From: Clostridia bacterium
GTDB lineage: Bacteria; Bacillota; Clostridia; UMGS1840
Assembly: GCA_017936745.1 (NCBI GenBank)
Contig: JAGBEY010000011.1
Coordinates: 8,498-72,497, forward strand
Direction: 5' to 3'
Length of the DNA stretch: 64,000 nt
Shown here: positions 1,667-43,572 of the stretch, one piece after another
Position numbering within the stretch: position 1 is the stretch's first letter
Layout of the letters: the number at the start of each line of letters is the position of its first letter
Position numbers and translations under genes: made by a program
The notes under the pieces: model-generated
Seen by the model: only the letters and a program-made list of their open reading frames with translations
Database searches by the model: none
What the model was told of the DNA's origin: nothing

Positions 1667-3766
1667 TTAGAAAATCAGCTTGGAAACCGTTGCGATTACA
1701 AAGCAGATAAAAAATCCGATTACTGTAGGAAGAAGTGCCGAAATTACGGTCCATTTCACACTGTTTGTTTCTTTCTTTATGGTGATAAGTGTAGTGGAAC
1801 AGGGCCAGTGAAACAAAGAAAATACCATGGTGCAAAGTGCTGTGATTTGTGTCCAGCCGTTTTGTAACAGAATTTGTTTCAAGGAGAGTAAGTCCGAAGC
1901 ATCGGTCAGACTTCCGTGAGAAAGATATGCCATCAGCATTATCGGAATCACAATTTCATTGGCGGGAAGTCCTAATAAAAAGGCAGTAAGAATCACCCCA
2001 TCCAATCCGAACCATCTTGCAAACGGATCAAACCATCCGCTGAGATAAGACAAAATAGTTTGCGAACCGATTTCTACATTGGCACAAAGCCATAGCACAA
2101 GCCCTGCCGGTGCGGCTACTGCCAGTGCACGTCCTAATACAAATACCGTTCTGTCCAACATGGAACGAATGAGAATTTTTCCGATTTTTGGTTTTCGGTA
2201 GGGCGGAAGCTCCAGTGTGAAGGAGGAGGGATGCCCTCGCAATAAGGTTTTGGATAACAGATAAGACACCGCAAATGTCATCCCGATTCCTGCTGTTACA
2301 GTTAAGGTTAAACAAAATGCCTGCCATAAAGAAGAATATGGAGAGGTAATGGCAAAAAACATAGAAATCATAGCGATTAGAGTCGGAAACCGACCGTTAC
2401 ATGGCACAAAGCTGTTGGTGAGAATGGCAAGTAACCGTTCTCTCGGAGAGTCAATAATCCGACATCCTACTACGCCCACTGCATTGCAGCCAAAGCCCAT
2501 ACACATGGTAAGTGCCTGCTTTCCGCAGGCTTTACAGCATTGGAAGGCTTTGTCTAAATTAAAGGCAATCCGAGGTAAATATCCCAAATCTTCCAAAAGG
2601 GTAAACAGCGGAAAGAAAATTGCCATAGGAGGAAGCATAACGGATACAATCCAGCCGACCACACGGAAAATTCCGGCACAAAGCAGAGAACAAAGCCACG
2701 GAGGGAGTCCAATGGAAACACACCCTGCAAAAAGGAGCTGCTCTCCGTGGGAAAACAAAGAAGAAAGAAGCTGCGACGGATAATTTGCTCCCGTAATAGT
2801 CAGCCAGAAAATGCCGGCAAACAACAGTAACATCAAAGGAATTCCGGTGAGCTTTCCAGTCAGGAGTCGGTCGATGATACGGTCTCTTTTTTCGTAATTT
2901 TCATCCTCGAAGGTGACTACATCCCTTGCAATTTGTTCTCCCTGTGTCACCAAGGCGGTGGCAACGGTGTCCCGATAGGTATTTTGGGTAAAGTTATGGC
3001 TTCTGAGCAGACTTTTTGCATGGAGAAAGGCGGTGGATATTCCGGCGTCATTAGAAAACTCAAGCGGAAGAACTTCGTCCTCCAAAAGCTTTCGCGCCCT
3101 TTGACGTGTGTAACGAAGTGTATCCCCGGGAAGATATGTAGCAAGAGCAGAAATTGCTTCTTCAATAGGGTCAGGATAGGTAACACAATAAGCAGACTCC
3201 GATGGATGTTGAAGCATTCGCTCCAGTGTTTCCATTAAATTCGGAAGTCCCGTTTTGTTTTTGGCACTGGTTGTTACCACGGGGACACCTAATTTTTGCG
3301 ATAACGCATCAGTGTCAATTCGGATTTTCTTTTTATTTGCTTCATCCATTAGATTGACACACACCACAACCCGATGAGTAATTTCCAATATTTGCAGCAC
3401 CAGATTCAGATTCCGTTCCAGGCAGGTGGCATCGCATACTACAATCACACCGTCCGGATTACCGTAGCATAAAAAATCCCGTGCTGCCTCCTCCTCGGGG
3501 GAATGGGAGAGCAGGGAATAGGTTCCCGGGATGTCAACCAAAATGTAATTGCGATTGTGGTAGGTACAGACTCCGCGCGCATTGGTGACCGTTTTTCCGG
3601 GCCAGTTTCCCGTATGCTGGTGCATCCCGGTCAGTGCATTGAATACGGTGCTTTTTCCTACGTTCGGGTTTCCTGCCAGACCGATTATAAGGTCGTTATC
3701 GCTTTTTGTTTGAACAATAAAATCCGAAGCTGCGGAAGCAGAAAGCTGATTTCTCATAAGCATCAA
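1667..3766 (-). CDS. feoB: ferrous iron transport protein B
   Basis: N-terminal G-domain GNPNVGKSTVFNALTG and DIPGTYSL, followed by a polytopic membrane domain. 699 aa, with feoA directly upstream. Confidence 0.95.
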   Translation of the reverse strand: MMLMRNQLSASAASDFIVQTKSDNDLIIGLAGNPNVGKSTVFNALTGMHQHTGNWPGKTVTNARGVCTYHNRNYILVDIPGTYSLLSHSPEEEAARDFLCYGNPDGVIVVCDATCLERNLNLVLQILEITHRVVVCVNLMDEANKKKIRIDTDALSQKLGVPVVTTSAKNKTGLPNLMETLERMLQHPSESAYCVTYPDPIEEAISALATYLPGDTLRYTRQRARKLLEDEVLPLEFSNDAGISTAFLHAKSLLRSHNFTQNTYRDTVATALVTQGEQIARDVVTFEDENYEKRDRIIDRLLTGKLTGIPLMLLLFAGIFWLTITGANYPSQLLSSLFSHGEQLLFAGCVSIGLPPWLCSLLCAGIFRVVGWIVSVMLPPMAIFFPLFTLLEDLGYLPRIAFNLDKAFQCCKACGKQALTMCMGFGCNAVGVVGCRIIDSPRERLLAILTNSFVPCNGRFPTLIAMISMFFAITSPYSSLWQAFCLTLTVTAGIGMTFAVSYLLSKTLLRGHPSSFTLELPPYRKPKIGKILIRSMLDRTVFVLGRALAVAAPAGLVLWLCANVEIGSQTILSYLSGWFDPFARWFGLDGVILTAFLLGLPANEIVIPIMLMAYLSHGSLTDASDLLSLKQILLQNGWTQITALCTMVFSLFHWPCSTTLITIKKETNSVKWTVISALLPTVIGFFICFVIATVSKLIF

Positions 3767-3830
3767 ATCCTTTCGTTTAAATTTTCAGAAAGAAAATGCA
3801 GGGCTTTTTTGAAAGAAAACCCTGCATTAT

Positions 3831-4064
3831 TCAAGGATTCATTAAAATGGTTTCGGAGTCTTTTTTACGGAGTGCAATGAGTGCACCGCGTATCCGATAT
3901 GCCACAGGATCTCCGGCGGGACTTTTCAGCACACATTCTATTTGTGTTCCCGGAATGATTCCCAAATCCTGCAACCTTCGCCGCATAGTACCCGAGGTGA
4001 GAATTTTAAGAACCGTTGCGTTTTGTCCCATAGGAAGCTGTGACAGCGGAAATATGAAATCCAT
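3831..4064 (-). CDS. feoA: FeoA family iron transport accessory protein
   Basis: 77-aa SH3-like FeoA pattern (LSQLPMGQNATVLKI...RRRLQDLGIIPGTQIE), immediately upstream of feoB. Confidence 0.85.
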   Translation of the reverse strand: MDFIFPLSQLPMGQNATVLKILTSGTMRRRLQDLGIIPGTQIECVLKSPAGDPVAYRIRGALIALRKKDSETILMNP

Positions 4065-4161
4065 AATAGCAACCTCCGGATTGGGAATTTCTTTGGAAAG
4101 TGTTTCCTGCTTTTAATATATGAAAAAAAAGAGAAACTGTGAAAATCTTCCGAAAAAAGAC

Positions 4162-4190
4162 TTGCACTTTCTTATGAAAAGTTGTATAAT
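4162..4190 (+). promoter_or_regulatory. sigma-A-type promoter
   Basis: TTGCAC, 17-nt spacer, TATAAT, about 30 nt upstream of the 4222 CDS. Confidence 0.55.
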
Positions 4191-4221
4191 AAAACTATTC
4201 TGATAAAGTGAGGTTGAAACG

Positions 4222-5109
4222 ATGGAATATGTTTTAGAATATCAAGGAATGAAAGCAATCTGTACCACTACCGGAGCGGAGCTTGTTTCCCTTACCAAAG
4301 ATGGTGGCAGAGAAGTAATCTGGCAAGGGGATGAAACCTATTGGAACGGTCGTAACCCCAATTTATTTCCCATTGTCTGCAGCTTGAAAAACTCCAAAAC
4401 CGTAATCAACGGCGTGGAGTACACCATTCCCAAGCATGGCTTTGTAAGACGAAAAGAATTTGAACTGGTGGAAAAAACTGATAAAAGCATCACCTTTTTA
4501 TATCGTGATAACGAAGAAACCAAACAGCATTATCCCTTTTCGTTCCGGTTTTATGTCACCCATACTTTGACGGAAGATGGGTTTATTACTGAGTATCGCG
4601 TGGAAAATACCGATAAACAGACCATGCTTTTTGGTCTTGGCGGTCACACTGCCTATAATTGCCCTATGAAAGAAGGAGATTCTTTTACCGATTACGAAAT
4701 TCGTTTTTCTGAAACGGAAACTCATCCTGTTTACCAGTGTGTTGCGGAGGATTTAGGCGGGCTGTTATATGAAAGAGGCATCCGCAAGGAATATGAAAAT
4801 GTGTCTGTAATTCCGTTGAAATACGATATTTTTGATTTGGATGCCCTGATGTTTTCCAAGCTCAATTCTAAAAAAATACAGTTGATTCATCAGTCGGGAG
4901 ACTATGGGGTAGAGGTGGAAGTAGACGGTTTTTCCTGCCTGGGAATCTGGACTCCCATAAAAAAAGAAGCACCGTTTTTGTGTATTGAGCCATGGACCAT
5001 TATTCCTGATAAAGAAGACACCACGGGCGTATTTTCCGAGAAACCTAATATCACTGCTTTGGAAGCAGGAAAATCCAAAACCTATTCTTATCGGGTTCGG
5101 TTGATATAG
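4222..5109 (+). CDS. aldose 1-epimerase family protein
   Basis: Mutarotase-like motifs (NLFPIVCSLKN, PKHGFVRRKEFELV, GGHTAY). 295 aa. Confidence 0.75.
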   Translation: MEYVLEYQGMKAICTTTGAELVSLTKDGGREVIWQGDETYWNGRNPNLFPIVCSLKNSKTVINGVEYTIPKHGFVRRKEFELVEKTDKSITFLYRDNEETKQHYPFSFRFYVTHTLTEDGFITEYRVENTDKQTMLFGLGGHTAYNCPMKEGDSFTDYEIRFSETETHPVYQCVAEDLGGLLYERGIRKEYENVSVIPLKYDIFDLDALMFSKLNSKKIQLIHQSGDYGVEVEVDGFSCLGIWTPIKKEAPFLCIEPWTIIPDKEDTTGVFSEKPNITALEAGKSKTYSYRVRLI

Positions 5110-35766: not shown

Positions 35767-38408
35767 GCTTTACCTATCCGAATAAAACGGGGAAAGTGCT
35801 GAAAGATATTACGTTTACCATACAGCAAGGTGAATTTTTGCTGCTATGCGGAAAATCAGGCTGCGGAAAAACGACTCTGCTAAGATTGTTGAACTCTTCC
35901 TTGTCACCTTTTGGAGAGTTAAGCGGAAGTATTGATTTTAACGGAAAACCTTTGGCACAATACAGCACAAGAGAGCAGGCAGCGGGCATCGGCTTTGTGA
36001 TGCAAAATCCCGATAATCAGATTGTGACAGACAAGGTATGGCATGAGCTGGCGTTCGGGCTGGAAAGTCTTGGTTATAAACAGAGTGAAATCCGAACAAG
36101 GGTGTCCGAAATGGCATCGTTTTTCGGGATACAAACCTGGTTTTACAAAAAAGTAACGGAGCTTTCCGGCGGACAGAAACAGCTTTTGAATCTGGCCTCT
36201 GTTATGGTGATGCAACCCTCAGTGCTGATTTTAGACGAACCCACCAGTCAGCTTGACCCCATTGCCGCAAGTGAATTTTTGCAAACACTGGAAAAAATCA
36301 ATCGGGAGCTTGGTACAACTGTCATTCTTACAGAGCATCGTTTGGAAGATGCTTTTCCATTGGCAGACAGAGTTATGGTGCTGGATGACGGGCAACTGAT
36401 TGCAGATGCAGCTCCTTGTGAAGTCGGCAAGCTTTTGAAAGCAAAACAACACGATATGTACGATGCACTTCCGACTCCTATGAAAGTGTATGGTGCTCTG
36501 AAAAGCCCCTTGTCTTGTCCTGTAACGGTAAGAGAGGGGAGAGCCTTTTTGGAGGCTTACGCCAAAGAGCATCCGCTTCATCCTGATGTGATTCCATGTG
36601 ATTCTCACCTTTTAAACAACGAAACCGTTTTGGAAATGAAAGACGTTTGGTTCCGCTATGAAAAGGATTTGCCCGACGTGGTCAAAGGATTTCACGTGAG
36701 CATCAAAAAAGGAGAATTGTTTTGTTTGGTTGGCGGCAACGGAACCGGGAAAACCACAGCTCTTTCTTTGTTATCAGGACTTAACCGGCCTTACAGAGGA
36801 GATGTGTTCATCAAGGGACAGCGTATTTCGGACATCAAAAATTTGTATTGTGGACTCCTTGGTGTTCTTCCGCAGGATCCTCAAAGTGTATTTGTCAAGA
36901 AAACCGTTTATCTGGATTTGATGGAGATATTATCCAATCGAAAGCTTTCAAAAGAAGAAAAAGAAAGAAAAGTGCAAGCGGTTGCGCTGCTTTGCAGAAT
37001 TGAAACGCTTCTGGATAGTCATCCTTACGATTTATCGGGCGGGGAACAGCAACGGGCTGCCCTGGCAAAGATTCTTCTGATGGAGCCTGAAATTCTGTTG
37101 CTGGACGAACCCACAAAGGGGATGGATGCCCATTTTAAGGAAGAATTTGCAGATGTTCTTATGGATTTGAGAGAACATGGCGTTACCGTGTTTATGGTGT
37201 CGCACGATATTGAATTTTGTGCAGAATATGCCGATAGATGCGCTCTTGTCTTTGACGGCAGTATCACATCTGTTGACACACCGAGAGAATTTTTCAAAGG
37301 AAAAAATTTCTACACCACAGCTGCAAACCGTATGGCGAGAACTTGTCTGTCGGATGCGGTTTTGGCAGACGATATCATCCTTGCTTGCGGGGGAAGCATA
37401 AAAAAAAGAGAACGGCAGTCGCGTTCTTACGAATTTTCCTCGGGAGAAGATGAGAACATGCCTCAAAAAAGCAAAAAACTGACTCCCGTCAGAATTGTGA
37501 TTGGCAGTATTTTTTCTTTACTCTTTGTTTTTACATCGTTATTTTATTATACAGAGATTGATTTGTTAGGGTTTCGGAACCTTCGCTTTTTGGAAATGGA
37601 TACCTGGCAAATTCTTGCCATTGTGGAATTGGTGGTTGTCGGGTTTAGCTTTTTTCCTCAAAAAGAGATTGGAATGGAAGTAATACAAATGCCGCGAAAT
37701 AGTCGGACACTGACCAAACGTACCCTTGCGGCGGCGTTTCTTATTTTGCTCTTGATTCCGCTGACAATCTATATCGGGACTTTCTTTTTAGGGGATAGAA
37801 AATACTATTTTATCAGCTTGCTTATCATCCTGGAAACCATGATACCGTTTTGTATGGTGTTTGAATCCCGAAAACCCAAAGCAAGAGAACTCATTATTAT
37901 CAGTGTGTTGTGTGCCATCGCCGTTGCCGGAAGAGGGGCATTTGCGATGCTTCCGCAGTTTAAACCGGTTGTTGCACTGGTTATTATTTCAGGGGTATGC
38001 TTTGGCGGAGAAACTGGGTTTTTGGTTGGTGCAGTTGCCGGCTTCGTTTCCAATTTTTTCTTCGGACAAGGGCCTTTGACTCCCTGGCAGATGTTCAGCT
38101 TTGGAATAATCGGATTTATGGCAGGAATCTTTTTTCAAAAAGGATTTCTTCGTAAGACTAAGGCATCGCTTTGCATCTTTGGCTTTTTAACCGCTCTTAT
38201 CATTTATGGCGGTATTATGAATCCAGCATCCATTCTTGTGTTTCAGAGTCACATTACGTGGGAAATGCTGATAGCATCTTATGTAACCGGCTTTTCTTTC
38301 GATTTAGTCCATGCTCTTTCTACCGCCTTTTTTCTTTGGGTTATCAGCGAACCTATGATAGATAAGCTGGAGAGAATCAAAATAAAGTATGGCTTGGTAG
38401 AACGCTAA
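35739..38408 (+). CDS. fused ECF transporter: two ABC ATPase domains plus a C-terminal S-component-like membrane domain
   Basis: Two Walker A motifs (GKSGCGKTT, GGNGTGKTT). Two signature motifs (LSGGQKQ, LSGGEQQ). After about residue 560 there are 6-7 TM spans, with MIPFCMVFE...AGRGAFAMLPQFKPV typical of ECF S units. Confidence 0.85.
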   Translation: MECFKVENLSFTYPNKTGKVLKDITFTIQQGEFLLLCGKSGCGKTTLLRLLNSSLSPFGELSGSIDFNGKPLAQYSTREQAAGIGFVMQNPDNQIVTDKVWHELAFGLESLGYKQSEIRTRVSEMASFFGIQTWFYKKVTELSGGQKQLLNLASVMVMQPSVLILDEPTSQLDPIAASEFLQTLEKINRELGTTVILTEHRLEDAFPLADRVMVLDDGQLIADAAPCEVGKLLKAKQHDMYDALPTPMKVYGALKSPLSCPVTVREGRAFLEAYAKEHPLHPDVIPCDSHLLNNETVLEMKDVWFRYEKDLPDVVKGFHVSIKKGELFCLVGGNGTGKTTALSLLSGLNRPYRGDVFIKGQRISDIKNLYCGLLGVLPQDPQSVFVKKTVYLDLMEILSNRKLSKEEKERKVQAVALLCRIETLLDSHPYDLSGGEQQRAALAKILLMEPEILLLDEPTKGMDAHFKEEFADVLMDLREHGVTVFMVSHDIEFCAEYADRCALVFDGSITSVDTPREFFKGKNFYTTAANRMARTCLSDAVLADDIILACGGSIKKRERQSRSYEFSSGEDENMPQKSKKLTPVRIVIGSIFSLLFVFTSLFYYTEIDLLGFRNLRFLEMDTWQILAIVELVVVGFSFFPQKEIGMEVIQMPRNSRTLTKRTLAAAFLILLLIPLTIYIGTFFLGDRKYYFISLLIILETMIPFCMVFESRKPKARELIIISVLCAIAVAGRGAFAMLPQFKPVVALVIISGVCFGGETGFLVGAVAGFVSNFFFGQGPLTPWQMFSFGIIGFMAGIFFQKGFLRKTKASLCIFGFLTALIIYGGIMNPASILVFQSHITWEMLIASYVTGFSFDLVHALSTAFFLWVISEPMIDKLERIKIKYGLVER

Positions 38409-38441
38409 GTGCTTGCGATTTCCGATAAGAATAGATAATAA

Positions 38442-38472
38442 AAAACGGTAATGATACCATTGCCGTTTTTTT
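38442..38472 (+). terminator. rho-independent terminator
   Basis: Stem AACGGTAATG/CATTGCCGTT followed by T7. Confidence 0.75.
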
Positions 38473-38668
38473 ATATTTGCCATTTTTCAATGTAAAATAT
38501 AATCTGTTGTTTAGCAGCGAGAAACCCTCCTTACAAAGTGAAGTCCCTTATGGCGTAATAATTATACAGATTTCTATTTGAAAGTATTGCTGGGGGAGTG
38601 TTATCTCTCTCAGTTGCGACAGAAAGACTTTCATTATGAACTCTGAATTTGTTTCAAAACTGAAATGT

Positions 38669-38965
38669 TTAAAAAGATAGAACAAAGCAAAAAAAGACTG
38701 CAACCCTTGAGATTACAGACTTTTTAGTGGCAGGGGCAGTATTGTTAGCCAGATGATTTATTATTTTATCTGTGTTATCGGGAATGAAAGACATATTGGC
38801 AACGGATGGGTCTATCAGTTCACGTATCAACCTTGTGATAGTAGACTTACCCGTTCCGTGTTCCGACGAAATGACTGCAATATAATGCGAGCTGTTTGGA
38901 AAAAAATATTGGATAAGAACTATCTTGTGGATCTTTTGTATTATCAGGTTCCATAATGCTTCCTT
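38669..38965 (-). pseudogene. start-less remnant of a P-loop NTPase (mobile-element primase/helicase-like)
   Basis: Minus-strand frame reads ...IQYFFPNSSHYIAVISSEHGTGKSTITRLIRELIDPSVANMSFIPDNTDKIINHLANN. It has no start codon and is open for only about 96 codons. The track ORFs here are in other frames. Confidence 0.45.
38727..38741. repeat. distal direct repeat (att-like) duplicating the tRNA-Trp 3' end
   Basis: GTGGCAGGGGCAGTA is identical to 43368-43382. Confidence 0.8.
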
Positions 38966-39052
38966 CTTTCGTTAAAAATATTTTTATTGGATTATGTGTT
39001 TTATAAGTAAAAACTACCCTCCCGGAATTTAATATTCTTAATAGAAAAGGAC

Positions 39053-39149
39053 ACAAAAAAACCTTTCCAGAAAGAACACATACCAAAGCATAGACTATCC
39101 CCGTAGGATTATTCTATTTTTGGGTATGTATACCTTCTGAAAAGGTTTT
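39053..39149 (-). terminator. long imperfect hairpin terminator ending the islet operon
   Basis: Arms of about 30 nt (39055-39088 and 39116-39149) are followed on the minus strand by T7. Confidence 0.55.
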
Positions 39150-39286
39150 AAGTTTATTATTATATATCTATTATTCTATTGTCAGGATAATTCCTATTTT
39201 GTCGGTGAAAGTGGTTTTAGCATATAAGAAAAGATTTGTCAAGATTTTTTTGAAAATTTTTTTATTTAACATTTAATACATAATAA

Positions 39287-39406
39287 TTATTTAATTTTTC
39301 TTGATTTAATTCCATTTACAGCTAAGTAGACATTCACTGCAAGAATAGCGCCTTCTGCAAAAGCAGTGATAACTGTCTTTGCAGTGATTCCAATCAATAA
39401 TCCCAA
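39287..39406 (-). CDS. candidate 39-aa hydrophobic micropeptide (TTG start)
   Basis: (M)GLLIGITAKTVITAFAEGAILAVNVYLAVNGIKSRKIK. AAGGAAGGGA lies 5 nt upstream. The start abuts the previous stop (TAATTG). Below the track's length cutoff. Confidence 0.3.
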   Translation of the reverse strand: MGLLIGITAKTVITAFAEGAILAVNVYLAVNGIKSRKIK

Positions 39407-39496
39407 TTAAATCCCTTCCTTTTCCATATTGATGATAGTATCTACTGTTAAAAGAATTGCTAATGTGATACCAAATCCTGATACTGTATATTCCAT
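39407..39496 (-). CDS. candidate 29-aa hydrophobic micropeptide
   Basis: MEYTVSGFGITLAILLTVDTIINMEKEGI, with RBS AAAGGAG 7 nt upstream of the ATG. Below the track's length cutoff. Confidence 0.3.
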   Translation of the reverse strand: MEYTVSGFGITLAILLTVDTIINMEKEGI

Positions 39497-39556
39497 AAAT
39501 TTAACTCCTTTGCATAAAATAAAGGCAATGAACATGACACTTCATTGCCTTATACA

Positions 39557-40069
39557 TTATTCAATATTTAATGCAGTTCCACAATACTCACATTTATTTT
39601 CACCAATCGAGGATACGTTATTGGTAGCTCCGCAGGTGGGGCATATTACACTGGTTGTGACGACTTTAGTATTGATATCAACATCTTCATTTGGCAATAC
39701 AATGGAACGTGTCATATTATCAATGTGAGCCAATCCAAAGAATCCCTTCTGAATCATTTTTCTGATATCTTTTTCAACTTGTTCATAGGAAAGTGATAGT
39801 GAGGAAGCGATTTTGTCCAATGATGAAATTCGGTGATTGTCTATCATAGAGAAGTATTCTCTTTTCCTTAAATTTCTTTTTTCCCATAAGAATCCGACTA
39901 CTACGGCAACAATGAGAGCGGTAAAGAATAACGCTCCATCTCCCATCAGCTTACCCATCCATGAACCTATGGTATAACAACCGATGATATATCCTAAAAT
40001 TCCCCCCTTAATAGCACCTTTTTTTGGTGCAATGCTTTTGATTGCTTTCTCTCTTCTAGTATCATTCAT
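39557..40069 (-). CDS. 2-TM protein with a helical (wHTH-like) domain and a C-terminal zinc ribbon
   Basis: TM segments at about residues 22-41 and 45-62. Then SLDKIASSLSLSYEQVEKDIRKMIQKGFF. Terminal ribbon CPTCG-N13-CEYCG. Confidence 0.6.
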   Translation of the reverse strand: MNDTRREKAIKSIAPKKGAIKGGILGYIIGCYTIGSWMGKLMGDGALFFTALIVAVVVGFLWEKRNLRKREYFSMIDNHRISSLDKIASSLSLSYEQVEKDIRKMIQKGFFGLAHIDNMTRSIVLPNEDVDINTKVVTTSVICPTCGATNNVSSIGENKCEYCGTALNIE

Positions 40070-40070
40070 C

Positions 40071-40733
40071 TTAAAATCCTCCTCTTTTTAACTGTGTAAC
40101 GGTAATATTTCTTTCCTGGATGAGCTGTAATGCCTTCTCGCACAACATGTCTGTTTCTGTTTCATCGGTACTATTTGAAATGGCATTCAAAACAGTCAAT
40201 ATTTCTGCACTTTTGTAATCGGAAACGTGATCGGAATATTTAATAGTATCATAGATTTCCAGAAGCTTTGTACGATGCTTTTCAAACCTACTGTTTACAG
40301 AAAGAACTTGTGCGATTCGTTCACATTCATCAATCACTGCCTTTTGCTGAATGGTGGTTTCCTCATTCTTGTTGATATCATTTGTGACTCCGCTTAAAAC
40401 TACAATGAGAATTGCGAAAATCGCTATTAATACCAAATGAATGATGCAAAATGCCGGAATACTATGAACAAACAGATTCTTAAATAATAACGAAAATAGA
40501 ATATTGATAATCAAATACACAGGCATCAGCGATGAAACGGAAAGGGAAGAAATCATTGTGGGATGTTTATAAAATGCCAACATTCCAAAAGTGATGCATT
40601 CCCCGATTATCACAAATAACAATGACACATAGTCGATTGCTCGTTTTCCGTTTTCGATTCCTAAAAGGAAGATGAGTACGGTAATTAGTAGTGTGATTCC
40701 GCCAATGACAAGAATGGAGTTCTTATTTTTCAT
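40071..40733 (-). CDS. 4-TM protein with a ~100-aa C-terminal helical domain
   Basis: Four hydrophobic spans in residues 7-116, then a charged helical tail. Only 1 nt separates it from the next gene. Confidence 0.6.
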   Translation of the reverse strand: MKNKNSILVIGGITLLITVLIFLLGIENGKRAIDYVSLLFVIIGECITFGMLAFYKHPTMISSLSVSSLMPVYLIINILFSLLFKNLFVHSIPAFCIIHLVLIAIFAILIVVLSGVTNDINKNEETTIQQKAVIDECERIAQVLSVNSRFEKHRTKLLEIYDTIKYSDHVSDYKSAEILTVLNAISNSTDETETDMLCEKALQLIQERNITVTQLKRGGF

Positions 40734-40745
40734 AAATATACCCCC

Positions 40746-41972
40746 TTAGAGTTTGTTGCCGCATTCAGGACAGAATTTAGGAGTCCCGTGAATTTCGGCA
40801 TTGCAGTTAGGGCATTTTCTTGTTTGAGGACTGCCGCATTCAGGACAGAACTTGCTGTTTTCTGCAATAGATGCTCCGCAACTGATACATTTGGTCTGAC
40901 CTGCTGATTGGGCTTCCGCTCCGCAATTGTTACAAAACTTTTGATTTGCATTCAAAATAGTACCACACTTTGCACAAGTTATGGGAGAATCGTCCGTTAC
41001 ATTCATTACGGCAGCCATATTACCCATTTGTGTTCCTACAACTGCACCCATTCTGTTGCCCATTGCAAGTCCCATTCCCATTGTCATAAAATCATTTGAC
41101 ATTCCGCTACCTTCGTTGGAAGCGGCACTTTCCATCACATCAAAGGAGCGTCGTTGCTGATAGGTATAACCTGCTTGTTTTTGTTCATAACCCATAACAT
41201 CTGCTTTTGCAGTGCCTACCTGGCGTGTGGTATAAGCTTCTGTGTCTGCTTTGGCTGTTTCTGTCCACCTTGTTTTTGCGGCATCAGCCATAGCTTCTTT
41301 TACTAACTTATAGCTGCTGTCATTCTCGTCGGCATTGACACTGTTAACAGAGAAATTCAGAAGAGTTATGCCATAATCAGCCATAAAGTCTTTCAGATAT
41401 TCTCTTATAAAATCGGATAAATCATCTAAATATGTATTAACCTGCAGAATGCCAATGTGTTTCTGAGTGAAGTATGAACCAATGATAGAAGTACATTTTC
41501 TTAAGTATTCACCCTTGAAATATGAAATAATATTTTCCTTACTGAATATGGGAAGGGTACCAACTAATTTTTCTAAGAATTTTTTTGAGTTTTCAATTCG
41601 AATGCCAAATTGACCGAAGCTTTTTACTTTCACATCAATCATAAGAAAGGGGTCGAACAAGGAAACTGGTGTGGGGGTTCCCCATTTAATATCCAATGAA
41701 TGAATCTTATTTACAAACCATACTTCTGCCTTGAAAGGGGATTGACCACCAAAGGGAAGGTTAATCAGCTTATTTAGAATCGGAATATTTCTTGTTTCTA
41801 ATGTGTGTCTCCCTGCACCGAACACATCCAATGCCTGTCCGCCTTTGAATAAGATAGCTTCCTGCGATTCATTGACTATCAGTTGTGTTTTGGTGCTTAG
41901 TTCGTCGTTTGGATATTTCCAGGCAAAGATATTTGGTCCGCCTTCATATCGTACAACATCAATTAGTGCCAT
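40746..41972 (-). CDS. SPFH/band-7 protein of the YdjI/COG4260 type with a Gly/Met-rich linker and three C-terminal zinc ribbons
   Basis: N-terminus ALIDVVRYEG..FAWKYP...LIVNESQEAILFKGGQALDVFGAGRHTLETRNIPIL...SPFKAEVWFVNK...KWGTPTPV is colinear with B. subtilis YdjI as I recall it. C-terminus has 3x CxxC-N11-CxxC. Confidence 0.75.
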   Translation of the reverse strand: MALIDVVRYEGGPNIFAWKYPNDELSTKTQLIVNESQEAILFKGGQALDVFGAGRHTLETRNIPILNKLINLPFGGQSPFKAEVWFVNKIHSLDIKWGTPTPVSLFDPFLMIDVKVKSFGQFGIRIENSKKFLEKLVGTLPIFSKENIISYFKGEYLRKCTSIIGSYFTQKHIGILQVNTYLDDLSDFIREYLKDFMADYGITLLNFSVNSVNADENDSSYKLVKEAMADAAKTRWTETAKADTEAYTTRQVGTAKADVMGYEQKQAGYTYQQRRSFDVMESAASNEGSGMSNDFMTMGMGLAMGNRMGAVVGTQMGNMAAVMNVTDDSPITCAKCGTILNANQKFCNNCGAEAQSAGQTKCISCGASIAENSKFCPECGSPQTRKCPNCNAEIHGTPKFCPECGNKL

Positions 41973-41986
41973 TTTTTCGTATCTCC

Positions 41987-42343
41987 CTATAAAGTTTCTT
42001 TAATCATTCTTCTGATTGTTTTTTCGCTGTAGCCATATTTTTGAGCTAACTGCCTGATATTCGTTCCATCATACTCAATGGGGATTCGCTGTTTGACGTA
42101 TTCCGGATTGAATAATCTTGTAGGATAAGTGATTTGCATTCCTTTGTATAATTGATACATTTTGATTGCAACATCATATCCAAATTCTTCTGAAATCTCT
42201 TCATAGATAGGATTGAGCAGTTTTAGTGTTTGCTCATTTCCCATAGCAATCACCTCTTGAACATAATCTCTACATACGTATTTTAGCATATTTTGATTTA
42301 TAAGTAAAATCTCTTTGTCCTTATGTTTTTCCATATTTTGCAT
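41987..42343 (-). CDS. Mor-family (phage Mu middle-operon-regulator-like) HTH protein
   Basis: C-terminal pattern GMQITYPTRLF....KQRI..EYDGTNIRQLAQKYGYSEKTIRRMIKE. Confidence 0.6.
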   Translation of the reverse strand: MQNMEKHKDKEILLINQNMLKYVCRDYVQEVIAMGNEQTLKLLNPIYEEISEEFGYDVAIKMYQLYKGMQITYPTRLFNPEYVKQRIPIEYDGTNIRQLAQKYGYSEKTIRRMIKETL

Positions 42344-42364
42344 CTTCTCATATACGGTAATATT

Positions 42365-42634
42365 TCACTCTTTTCCTGCAATATATAGATATTTTTTGTA
42401 GGGACAAATCACTTGTGCAAATTCTGACGTATCCAAATTTTTGTTAAAATTCTCTATGTGTAAAGATTCATTTTTTTCACACACAACTACAAAACCACCC
42501 ATATCAACATCAACATTTCGGTCTTCACCATAATTCTCATCTAACAATGCTACATCTTGGGATATTGCATTTTGAATGTGGATGGGAAGATGGGAGATTC
42601 GGAACAACTCGTTTTTCGTACCAATTTTAATCAT
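42365..42634 (-). CDS. hypothetical protein (89 aa)
   Basis: Tightly spaced within the operon (7 nt and 21 nt gaps). No motif recognised. Confidence 0.5.
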   Translation of the reverse strand: MIKIGTKNELFRISHLPIHIQNAISQDVALLDENYGEDRNVDVDMGGFVVVCEKNESLHIENFNKNLDTSEFAQVICPYKKYLYIAGKE

Positions 42635-42641
42635 TTGAACA

Positions 42642-43169
42642 TCACTCCTTATTGATTAACTCGCCTATGATAAATGGCATAAGCTTCCATTTTCTCACTT
42701 TTGGACATAACGGATGATAGAATTTTCTATCATCCGAATCAGCGATGCAAAATAGCTTTTTGCTATAGGTTGATAGTGATTCTAAAACCTCTGTTTGGCA
42801 TTTCTGGACACGCTTATCGGTAGATTTTCCTGTTCCTACTGCGAAAATAATAATCTCTGCATTGCTGGCAGATTTTTGGATAGCCTTTCGGTTCTCCTCA
42901 TCCATTTCGTTATCAATCACGGCTTTTCCATTCCCAATGGTTGCAAACAAATTTACGATATCCACACTGCCGTAATCCAATGCAATTAGATTTTCAATAC
43001 AATGCGATGTGGTTCTGTCGAACACAATTCCGTTTGCCTGACCTGATGAAAGCATAACCACACAAGCCTTTTTCTTGTCTTTATCCCATTCAACAGATAA
43101 GACATATCGTTTCGTTTTGTCATCACTATACTGTAGGGATGATTTTAGTATCGTTTTTTCTGAAATCAT
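42642..43169 (-). CDS. DUF1643 domain protein
   Basis: KRYVLSVEWDKDKKKACVVMLSSGQANGIVFDRTTSHCIENLIALDYGSVDIVNLFA fits the DUF1643 pattern. RBS GGAGG precedes ATG 43169, and the listed 43298 start is unlikely. Confidence 0.65.
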   Translation of the reverse strand: MISEKTILKSSLQYSDDKTKRYVLSVEWDKDKKKACVVMLSSGQANGIVFDRTTSHCIENLIALDYGSVDIVNLFATIGNGKAVIDNEMDEENRKAIQKSASNAEIIIFAVGTGKSTDKRVQKCQTEVLESLSTYSKKLFCIADSDDRKFYHPLCPKVRKWKLMPFIIGELINKE

Positions 43170-43367
43170 AAAAAACCTCCGTAAATAGAATAAGACCCAA
43201 ACGGTAGTTAACTGCCATTCGGGTCTCTCATCATTAGAATATATAATTGAAGATAGTTTTGTTACGTGACGTCGTCGGAGACGGCGAAATAGATACAAAT
43301 AAATATTACTAAATCAGTAACTATGAAAAGAAAAACGCCATCACTCACTATCGAATGACGGCGTTTT

Positions 43368-43382
43368 GTGGCAGGGGCAGTA
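43368..43382. repeat. proximal direct repeat (att-like) within the tRNA-Trp 3' end
   Basis: GTGGCAGGGGCAGTA is identical to 38727-38741. Confidence 0.8.
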
Positions 43383-43444
43383 GGATTTGAACCCACGACT
43401 TACAGTTTTGGAGACTGTCGCTCTACCAGCTGAACTATACCCCT
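43369..43444 (-). tRNA. tRNA-Trp (anticodon CCA)
   Basis: 76-nt cloverleaf. Acceptor AGGGGTA/TGCCCCT, D arm GTTC/GAGC, anticodon stem ACAGT/ACTGT with loop CTCCAAA, T arm GTGGG-TTCAAAT-CCTAC, and an encoded CCA. Confidence 0.95.
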
Positions 43445-43543
43445 AAATATTTGATACTGTGATATTATACACGAGTTTTTTTTGTTTGTCAATATATAAA
43501 ATGCAAAAAAATAATATTTTTCTCATAAATTTGGAATGTTTCG

Positions 43544-43572
43544 TTGACAATAGGGCTTTTTGACGATATAAT
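43544..43572 (+). promoter_or_regulatory. consensus sigma-A promoter
   Basis: TTGACA, 17 nt, TATAAT, upstream of the 43623 CDS. Confidence 0.6.

Follow-up and report, generated by a model that had tools for sequence, protein, structure and literature searches.

A cis-mobilisable element (CIME) by definition retains both of its attachment (att) sites, attL and attR (PMC5704250). In the staphylococcal cassette chromosome (SCC), the ccr locus brings together a primase/helicase operon, one or more site-specific recombinase genes and small open reading frames (ORFs), one of which belongs to the DUF1643 family (PMC7581432, PMC10581047). Here we describe a locus that can be set beside both. It lies in a 64,000-nucleotide stretch of the genome of a Clostridia bacterium of the UMGS1840 lineage (assembly GCA_017936745.1, contig JAGBEY010000011.1, positions 8,498 to 72,497; hereafter the window), where an islet of about 4.6 kb at positions 38727-43382 adjoins a tRNA-Trp gene and is bounded by a 15-bp direct repeat. 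A first account of this DNA, made from its letters without database searches (the sequence-only reading), had seen in the islet an integrase-less element with the 15-mer as its att sites. Our comparison with related loci makes it very probable that the islet is the immobilised remnant of an integrative element of about 10 kb that targeted tRNA-Trp, and that its integrase, its replication gene and most of one att site have been lost.

Islands that enter tRNA genes at the anticodon loop share several traits with this locus: the 3' part of the tRNA is regenerated from the element, the displaced part becomes attR, the DNA is AT-rich and brings its own terminator, and decay proceeds through deletion of the integrase while relatives keep the integrase and both att sites. 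The islet differs in that its attR is cut to 13-15 nt and fused to a gene fragment, which makes it a remnant without a usable att pair. With CIMEs and tandem accretions of the ICESt1/ICESt3 type it has in common the loss of integration genes and the trace of a second island in tandem at the same tRNA, and the two integrases concerned are less than 30% identical, as in described tandems (PMC5704250). In the islet, however, attR is truncated and the integrase of the neighbouring island is also gone, so that mobilisation in cis is not expected.

Attachment sites of the islet and of its relatives

The only tRNA gene found in the window is tRNA-Trp(cca), at 43369-43444 (minus strand; ARAGORN, with which Rfam agreed; Rfam found nothing beyond the tRNA). 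The 15-mer GTGGCAGGGGCAGTA, read on the plus strand, occurs there exactly twice. The right copy (43368-43382, plus strand) covers nt 63-76 of the tRNA plus one flanking base, and the left copy lies 4641 bp 3' of the tRNA end in the same orientation. No third copy was present in the window even at up to 2 mismatches, and 100 shuffles gave a mean of 0.03 matches, none of them reaching 2. The sequence-only reading had thus placed both copies exactly, with the correct orientation and on the correct side of the tRNA, and was justified in thinking a chance match unlikely. It was equally right that the interval is AT-rich (the GC content is mostly 0.28-0.41 across 38250-43500 against 0.41-0.46 in the flanks, and the GC skew flips its sign in the interval), that it contains a P-loop remnant and a phage-like regulator (both described below), and that it encodes no recombinase: tblastn with six query recombinases from related loci, namely three tyrosine integrase types and three large serine recombinases, returned nothing at E <= 0.1 in the islet or in the whole 64 kb. 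The flanks are ordinary chromosome, with a fused energy-coupling factor (ECF)-type ABC transporter on the left and a gene for a 153-aa protein, galK and galT on the right.

The parent family was found by searching for homologues of the DUF1643 protein of the islet, of which 81 were recovered, and by looking up their genomic context; the loci compared are referred to by L numbers. Members of the family share a layout in which a DUF1643 gene, a small ORF and a Mor-like regulator gene are followed by variable cargo, two tiny ORFs, an AT-rich palindromic region, a gene for a P-loop protein of 470-489 aa, a tyrosine integrase gene and further genes. The P-loop protein shows weak similarity to DUF5906 and to the DNA primases of phrog_1156 (Pfam, PHROGs), and we take it to be the putative replication protein. 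Identity of the DUF1643 protein to that of the window is 97% in L095, 93% in L092, 81% in L091 and 78% in L098. In L092, DUF1643, a 98-aa ORF, Mor, an SPFH protein, proteins of 220 and 171 aa and a 42-aa ORF are followed by a 137-aa ORF and a 488-aa P-loop protein. Then come a tyrosine integrase of 456 aa (PF00589, E 9e-27; phrog_1, E 9e-78) and, still on the same strand, another six ORFs. L095 resembles L092 and has an intact replication gene, which encodes 484 aa. L091 and L098 also encode integrases (392 and 394 aa) and keep the family backbone, but the cargo that follows Mor, ahead of the tiny ORFs, is different: a Sel1/TPR protein of 718 aa in L091, small ORFs in L098. The integrases of L092 and L091 are 75% identical. 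L091 and L098 each adjoin a tRNA-Trp gene (attL) and carry a repeat at the far end, so that homologous elements occupy the same target elsewhere; their chromosomal neighbourhoods are unrelated (L091 runs from an aroC side to an AMP-binding side), which shows that the family is mobile. The site-specific recombinase missing from the islet and from the 64 kb is thus present in L092, L091 and L098, and this identifies the islet as a remnant rather than a functional member.

The att repeat of the family is 46-48 nt long and begins at TCTCCAAAAC, which starts at nt 31 of the tRNA in the anticodon stem-loop (L098, L091, L092). In L098, a perfect repeat of about 48 nt (positions 246 and 8237) extends from TCTCCAAAAC to CCA plus one base. 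The L092 contig ends with 30 nt equal to tRNA nt 31-60, preceded by element sequence, which fits the same att site. In L091, attR is a diverged but foldable 3' half of tRNA-Trp in which only TCTCCAAAAC and the acceptor end match the functional tRNA, and the 3' half of that functional tRNA is identical to the window's. Since attL and attR of L091, the one informative case, share only these two segments, strand exchange would take place in or before the 10-nt TCTCCAAAAC block and the new 3' half would come from the element. In the window, the last 46 nt of tRNA-Trp (43369-43414) are the att identity block of the family, and the 3' part of the gene is therefore formally element-supplied (attL). 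Directly after the tRNA stands an element-borne intrinsic terminator (43332-43367, minus strand; fold -21.9 kcal/mol, z -6.0; recovered by a terminator scan), which is kept in L092 and L095. The present terminator of tRNA-Trp is contributed by the element.

At the other end of the islet, the breakpoints of homology can be read directly from the alignments. By blastn, window 38967-43396 aligned with L092 4445-1 at 92.8% identity and window 38740-38927 with L092 5576-5389 at 93.1%; against L095, 38928-43398 aligned at 93.8% and 38740-38927 at 99.5%. With both relatives, homology went no further than 38740, at the inner edge of the left 15-mer. Across the junction the sequence is ...CATCTGGCTAACAATA/CTGCCCCTGCCAC in the window, ...CATCTGGCTAACAATA/AAGTTGTT in L092 and ...AAATCCTA/CTGCCCCTGCCAC in the tRNA (in short form, ...GGCTAACAATA/CTGCCCCTGCCAC, ...GGCTAACAATA/AAGTTG and ...AATCCTA/CTGCC, respectively). 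Through a deletion, codon ~233 of the replication gene now abuts nt ~62-64 of the displaced half of the tRNA, with a 2-nt TA microhomology where the two meet. On the scale of L092, ~4.6 kb has gone: all of the replication gene beyond that codon, the integrase, about six ORFs and ~31-33 nt from the start of attR. In addition, the replication protein has lost residues ~10-168 to a second deletion, which measures 485 bp against L095.

The left copy of the 15-mer (38727-38741, plus strand) is accounted for as a truncated attR, in which 13 nt from the very end of the displaced 3' half of the tRNA (with 1 flanking base) adjoin the 2 nt of TA microhomology (junction comparison; alignments A2 and A3). 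Because homology stops at its inner edge, the 15-mer would be what the deletion left of a longer attR and not an att core; the length of the repeat is, judging from these alignments, set by the deletion breakpoint and not by a recombination core. This also removes the apparent coincidence of a gene fragment that ends exactly at an att repeat. Missing from the left site are nt 31-61/63 of the tRNA, the TCTCCAAAAC block among them, and no intact att pair remains. The islet does lie on the 3' side of the tRNA and is bounded by a direct repeat of the tRNA 3' part, of which only 13-15 nt survive. The attL/attR geometry proposed by the sequence-only reading was therefore a sound pointer to a tRNA-targeting integrative element, but the 15-mer cannot stand as the att core of a family whose repeat has 46-48 nt.

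An older island at the same tRNA

Loci of sister species were collected by a scan of genome contigs with GalK; they come from uncultured ruminant-gut Clostridia whose GalK is 76-79% identical at the amino acid level. In five of these loci (L013, L014, L016, L017 and L018), tRNA-Trp lies upstream of galK with one copy of the 15-mer and no islet, and the homologue of window 38650-38741 is directly 3' of the tRNA (blastn, alignment A1). This stretch consists of the left repeat plus about 75-90 bp to its left. The sequences on both sides of the islet are thus contiguous in five loci free of the element, and the left repeat is identified as the old end of the tRNA, from before the islet arrived. 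The comparison with empty sites in related genomes that had been suggested earlier succeeds: the five loci are free of the islet and have a single copy of the repeat, although an integrase-bearing island follows in them and the tRNA-Trp site is not unoccupied there.

Immediately 3' of the sister tRNAs, a convergent tyrosine integrase gene has its stop codon just beyond a perfect terminator hairpin and a short tandem repeat. These integrases have 376-390 aa (PF00589, E 1e-22 to 7e-27), are 66-99% identical to one another and are only 25-27% identical to the integrases of the element family; intact genes are found at L016:7471-8601, L017:8018-9190, L018:678-1808 and L013:~1603-2769, in four sister species. 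The tandem repeat, with units of 11-13 nt, differs between loci (AAAAGTTAGAAC twice in L016, AAAAGTTGGTGC twice in L017), and such units could be arm-type binding sites. In the window, the footprint of this older island occupies 38615-38688 (plus strand) and comprises the last ~50 nt of the integrase gene (38615-38663) and one copy of the short repeat. The equivalent of the stop codon is at 38661-38663; around it 26 of 26 nt are identical to L017, and identity is 76% over 108 nt. The tRNA-Trp terminator from before the insertion persists at 38690-38725 (minus strand). It is homologous to the perfect hairpin of the five sister loci and has mismatches in its stem (fold -14 versus -25.6 kcal/mol in L016). 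The left boundary of the islet is, on this homology, the junction of an older integrase-bearing island and not bare chromosome. A search of 38409-38614 for remains of the integrase body gave only a noisy, gappy alignment and no blastn match to any locus compared. As to the far end of the older island, no repeat of the tRNA region of at least 11 nt was present within the 1.8-9 kb available in L013, L016, L017 and L018.

Two other sister species carry a third type of element at the same tRNA-Trp (L012:6261-6427 and 3495-4781; L011:351-517). In these, the 76-nt tRNA is cut just past the anticodon loop and is followed by a complete 74-nt tRNA-Trp of another sequence type and by a 428-aa tyrosine integrase; the 74-nt type is the one targeted in L098. 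Three integrase types thus use one tRNA-Trp gene within one genus. In L102 (12675-13300; GCA_045631485.1, an assembly shared with L015), the ECF transporter gene is followed 200 bp further on by tRNA-Trp on the same strand, with a promoter region like that of window 43445-43495 (93%), a different terminator, and then tRNA-Ser and terminase remnants; this tRNA locus is inverted relative to the window. From this arrangement, the genus as a whole seems to have a variable island region at tRNA-Trp that is bracketed by ECF and galK. Mor-like matches 3-4 kb from galK in Fimenecus loci were rejected, being small chromosomal genes with no tRNA or island nearby.

Fixation and decay within the species

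Every contig that encodes an identical SPFH, GalK or ECF protein showed the arrangement of the window. Over window 38400-43500, six loci were 100% identical and L004, which comes from another study, was 99.66% identical; the junction was the same in all of them. Some of these same-species contigs may share biosamples, and the independent observations number fewer than seven. Neither an intact element nor an islet-free site was seen in same-species contigs, and there were 0 matches in a scan of metagenome contigs for an islet-free site or for attR in intact form, with the tRNA 3' half joined to the old terminator.

Relative to L092, the ratio of nonsynonymous to synonymous substitution rates (dN/dS) was 0.024 for the SPFH protein, 0.07 for the 220-aa protein, 0.115 for DUF1643, 0.18 for the 170-aa protein, 0.19 for the 89-aa ORF and 0.28 for Mor; amino acid identity was 99.3% for SPFH and 81% for the 170-aa protein. 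Values of 0.02-0.28 indicate that the retained genes have been under constraint. In L004 (SRR31940138), a nonsense mutation at the equivalent of 40283 cuts the 220-aa cargo protein to 150 aa, and a C>T change in the base after CCA (the equivalent of 43368) reduces the match between its two repeat copies to 14 of 15; 8 of its 14 substitutions fall within non-coding 38482-38697. Decay is ongoing in at least this strain.

Origin of the islet

We propose the following history. An older integrase island would have been resident at tRNA-Trp before the element arrived. The element would have integrated in the anticodon stem-loop, replacing the 3' 46 nt of the tRNA by an identical copy followed by its own terminator (attL) and pushing the original 3' half to the far end (attR), together with the old terminator and the resident integrase island. 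An illegitimate deletion of ~4.6 kb at a 2-nt microhomology would later have cost the element its integrase, the 3' half of its replication gene, some six ORFs downstream and ~31-33 nt of attR, leaving the last 13-15 nt of attR as the surviving 'direct repeat'. A separate 485-bp deletion would have taken residues ~10-168 out of the replication protein, and another would have trimmed the older integrase to a stub of ~50 nt; the history sets no order among the two deletions in the element and the loss of the older integrase. What is left would be the head module and, as cargo, three genes for a soluble SPFH/zinc-ribbon protein like YdjI and for two apparent membrane proteins. All would persist as ordinary chromosomal genes, the operon probably being transcribed from the leader of the element, perhaps under the Mor-like activator. 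Of this account, the breakpoints of homology, the layout of the family, the att sites of the relatives, the fixed state of the allele and the low dN/dS values were observed directly, whereas the sequence of events, the place of the crossover, control by Mor and the role of the cassette are inferred.

The islet might instead be a functional hitchhiker, a cis- or trans-mobilisable element or satellite that has no integrase of its own and is moved through 15-bp att sites by an integrase from elsewhere. Two identical direct 15-mers do flank it, purifying selection acts on a head module and cargo that are intact, an integrase of a second type once lay beside it, and there is good documentation of tandem arrays and of cis-mobilisable elements at tRNA genes (PMC5704250). 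Yet the left repeat is a deletion junction within a gene and not a designed end, and it is without the TCTCCAAAAC segment at which the att identity of the family starts. The replication gene is destroyed, the integrase-less form occurs at one locus only, with a single identical junction, and there is no integrase in the 64 kb, the adjoining one being a stub of a type only 25-27% identical to the family integrase. We therefore consider continued mobility of this kind improbable. The sequence-only reading had left the choice between a decayed element and a satellite mobilised in trans; decay is upheld, and the satellite is disfavoured, given that attR has lost its probable crossover segment, that the replication gene no longer survives intact and that the form is confined to one genomic position. 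Since the remnant has neither an integrase nor an intact replication gene, and lacks the part of attR at which the identity of the family starts, a cognate integrase acting in trans is not expected to excise it, as far as the crossover position deduced from L091 alone can tell. A different way for an integrase to be involved is that it made the large deletion itself, by recombining attR with a pseudo-att site inside the replication gene. Integrases occasionally use secondary sites, and one end of the deletion does lie within attR. The breakpoint in the replication gene (AACAATA/AAGTTG) is nevertheless unlike the TCTCCAAAAC block, the breakpoint in attR falls in the T-arm/acceptor region, ~31-33 nt from that block, and just 2 nt are common to both ends; we regard such an event as highly improbable compared with an illegitimate deletion. 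Finally, the 15-mer is short and the data are all metagenome assemblies, which might suggest a chance match, a conserved chromosomal motif or an assembly artefact at the junction. These explanations have next to no standing and are already refuted by the shuffles (0 of 100 gave 2 matches), by the sister-locus alignment, in which a homologue of the tRNA's own terminator follows the second copy, and by the recurrence of the junction in contigs from different samples and collections (ENA, Logan), including the 99.66% variant.

Some points weigh against the view of the islet as an immobilised remnant. No same-species contig shows the intact element or an islet-free site, and the deletions are deduced from relatives at 93-97% identity that have no host assignment; the part deleted in this lineage may have differed in content from L092. 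The crossover position comes from one attL/attR pair, that of L091, and recombination in the acceptor stem would keep the 15-mer a possible substrate. The low dN/dS values partly reflect time spent within intact elements, and the nonsense mutation of L004 argues that at least the 220-aa gene is dispensable.

Genes and non-coding features of the islet

All genes of the islet are on the minus strand and are directed away from the tRNA. Between attL and the DUF1643 gene lies a conserved leader (43194-43290, minus strand) that is common to all tyrosine-type members of the family (alignment A4, five members). It consists of a nearly invariant GC-rich box, GTTTCGCCGTCnCCGnCGACGTCACG (43262-43290), then a -10-like TTTATATATT, and then a hairpin (43194-43225) that precedes a U-rich tract and the ribosome binding site of DUF1643. 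The leader may contain the operator, promoter and attenuator of the operon formed by DUF1643, the hypothetical ORF, Mor and the cargo, and probably drives the retained genes. The hairpin stem appears compensatory between subgroups (GACCCGAATGG/CCGTTTGGGTC versus GACTAAAGC/GCTTTAGTC), covariation being judged by eye. On the other side of the tRNA, back-to-back perfect TTGACA-17-TATAAT promoters are found at 43464-43492 (minus strand) for tRNA-Trp and at 43544-43572 (plus strand) for the 153-aa gene upstream of galK.

The head module has three genes. The first (42642-43169, minus strand) encodes the DUF1643 protein of 175 aa (PF07799, E 9.6e-28; phrog_3230). The second (42365-42634, minus strand) is a small conserved ORF of 89 aa that matched no family in Pfam, PHROGs or NCBIfam and is syntenic in L091, L092, L093, L095, L098 and L100; its counterparts in relatives have 98-105 aa. 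The third (41987-42334, minus strand) encodes a Mor-family helix-turn-helix regulator of 115 aa (PF08765, E 3.9e-10; phrog_532, late transcriptional activator), which is the phage-like regulator noted earlier, and sits directly upstream of the cargo slot. The first cargo gene (40746-41972, minus strand) encodes a soluble SPFH (Band_7_1) protein of 408 aa (PF13421, E 1e-42; DZR, Zn_Ribbon_1) with a Met/Gly-rich low-complexity linker, C-terminal zinc ribbons and no apparent membrane anchor. The second (40071-40733, minus strand) encodes a protein of 220 aa that matched no family in Pfam, PADLOC or NCBIfam and, from reading of its sequence by eye, is apparently a multi-pass membrane protein. The third (39557-40069, minus strand) encodes 170 aa, with an N-terminal part that looks hydrophobic by eye and a C-terminal CxxC...CxxC zinc ribbon. 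PADLOC on six islet proteins gave nothing significant, NCBIfam on the islet proteins nothing useful, and sequence searches of the PDB with the DUF1643 and SPFH proteins no match.

Downstream of the cargo, 39290-39535 (minus strand) holds two tiny hydrophobic ORFs whose position is conserved across the family, one of 42 aa (39407-39535) and one of ~39 aa that starts with TTG (~39290-39406); a hairpin (39551-39522) spans the start of the former. The two may encode a pair of small toxins or membrane peptides, or may be spurious. Positional counterparts are seen in L091 (38 aa), L099 (42 and 37 aa) and L100 (42 aa). Next, in AT-rich non-coding DNA upstream of the stub of the replication gene, comes an inverted repeat (39058-39149) whose 40-nt arms pair imperfectly, being 80% complementary. 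L091 shares this region at 77% and also aligns with it in the inverted orientation; the repeat may be an origin or an operator.

The remnant of the replication gene (38742-38966, minus strand) consists of the start codon and ~9 codons (38928-38966) fused to the codons for residues ~169-233 (38742-38927). Window 38742-38935 corresponds to residues 169-233 of the 484- and 488-aa replication proteins of L095 and L092, with 90% and 83% identity (E 1e-34 and 5e-31), and the Walker A motif GTGKST is kept. The P-loop remnant reported by the sequence-only reading is thus real. That it might be a frameshifted gene was considered and rejected, comparison with L092 and L095 showing one frame with an internal deletion. 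A query 'repaired' for the supposed frameshift had found no homologue in a set of 5.8 billion proteins and none in phages, and gave weak matches only to Streptomyces and Methylobacterium plasmids.

Discussion

The parent family of the islet shares with SCC the combination of a replication operon, a recombinase and DUF1643, the islet's DUF1643 matching at E 1e-27 and the replication protein giving weak matches. It differs from SCC in having a tyrosine integrase in place of Ccr, in targeting tRNA-Trp and not the 3' end of rlmH (orfX), in its Mor-like regulator and in its hosts, uncultured gut Clostridia; among the family ORFs scanned against Pfam there was no DUF950, DUF960 or SAUGI. In cousins of the element (L093, L094, L099, L100 and L101), the gene for a 524-aa large serine recombinase and the start of DUF1643 overlap; other serine recombinases are present as well, along with a replication protein of the DUF927 or D5_N/DUF5906 kind. 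Of these, L093, L099 and L100, with the large serine recombinase gene directly followed by DUF1643 and with such a replication protein, come closer to SCC than the lineage of the islet does.

Phage satellites of the P4-like and PICI (phage-inducible chromosomal island) types share with the family a size of ~8-10.5 kb, an integrase and a P-loop primase/helicase-like replication protein, as well as a phage-type transcription activator and variable cargo slots able to hold defence genes. The family differs in that it has no match in viral contigs: the backbone (DUF1643, Mor and the P-loop replication protein) gave no phage or viral contig match in the collections searched with the DUF1643, SPFH and remnant queries, and viral-contig scans with the DUF1643 and SPFH proteins found no relatives. 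No packaging genes (small terminase, capsid-size or head-morphogenesis genes) were recognised in L092 by Pfam or PHROGs, six of its ORFs being without annotation.

With regard to the cargo, YdjI of B. subtilis has been described in terms that fit the SPFH protein of the islet, and it depends on YdjG/H, which are membrane proteins, both for reaching the membrane and for the recruitment of PspA (PMC8581546; bioRxiv 10.64898/2026.02.06.704340). Like YdjI of the PspA-YdjGHI (SamGHI) membrane-stress module, the SPFH protein of the islet has a PF13421 domain (E 1e-42), zinc ribbons and a Met/Gly-rich linker; two genes for apparent membrane proteins adjoin it. In the islet, however, there is no pspA, the SPFH gene comes first, and the cassette travels on mobile elements and is not part of a sigma-W regulon. 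The likeness to YdjI and YdjGHI would be one of functional analogy; a role of the cassette in membrane stress or against phages is plausible. The same three-gene cassette is also found in the serine-recombinase elements L100 and L101, at 71-73% nucleotide identity. Remoter SPFH homologues are plasmid-borne; one of them, on a rumen plasmid of Butyrivibrio, has restriction-modification and toxin-antitoxin genes around it.

Exchangeable cargo is seen in the family as a whole: the SPFH/zinc-ribbon cassette, the Sel1/TPR protein, DUF2846 and an AbiLi-like ATPase, the last of these in L091 (E 4.6e-62). We found no description of this parent family in the literature searched. We suggest tentatively, at rather less than even confidence, that elements with the order DUF1643, small ORF, Mor, cargo, replication protein and recombinase are a so far undescribed family of small, replicative integrative elements from uncultured gut Clostridia. 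Such elements would have an SCC-like layout in which the recombinase is swapped (a tyrosine integrase at tRNA-Trp versus a large serine recombinase) and a cargo slot under the control of Mor, and the islet would be a domesticated remnant kept for YdjI-like protection against membrane stress or phages.

For annotation, the locus is a caution: a short direct repeat at the end of a tRNA gene can be the stump of a longer att site and not its core, and an 'integrase-less islet' should therefore not be read as a satellite before intact relatives have been checked. The locus also records the stepwise fossilisation of two tandem islands and the retention, under purifying selection, of a mobile SPFH/zinc-ribbon membrane cassette. 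As a decayed tRNA-integrated element, the islet itself is a genome fossil of an ordinary kind; most of the interest lies in that cassette and in the apparently undescribed parent family, which could be tractable for the study of recombinase-module swapping and cargo hotspots in uncultured rumen and gut Clostridia.

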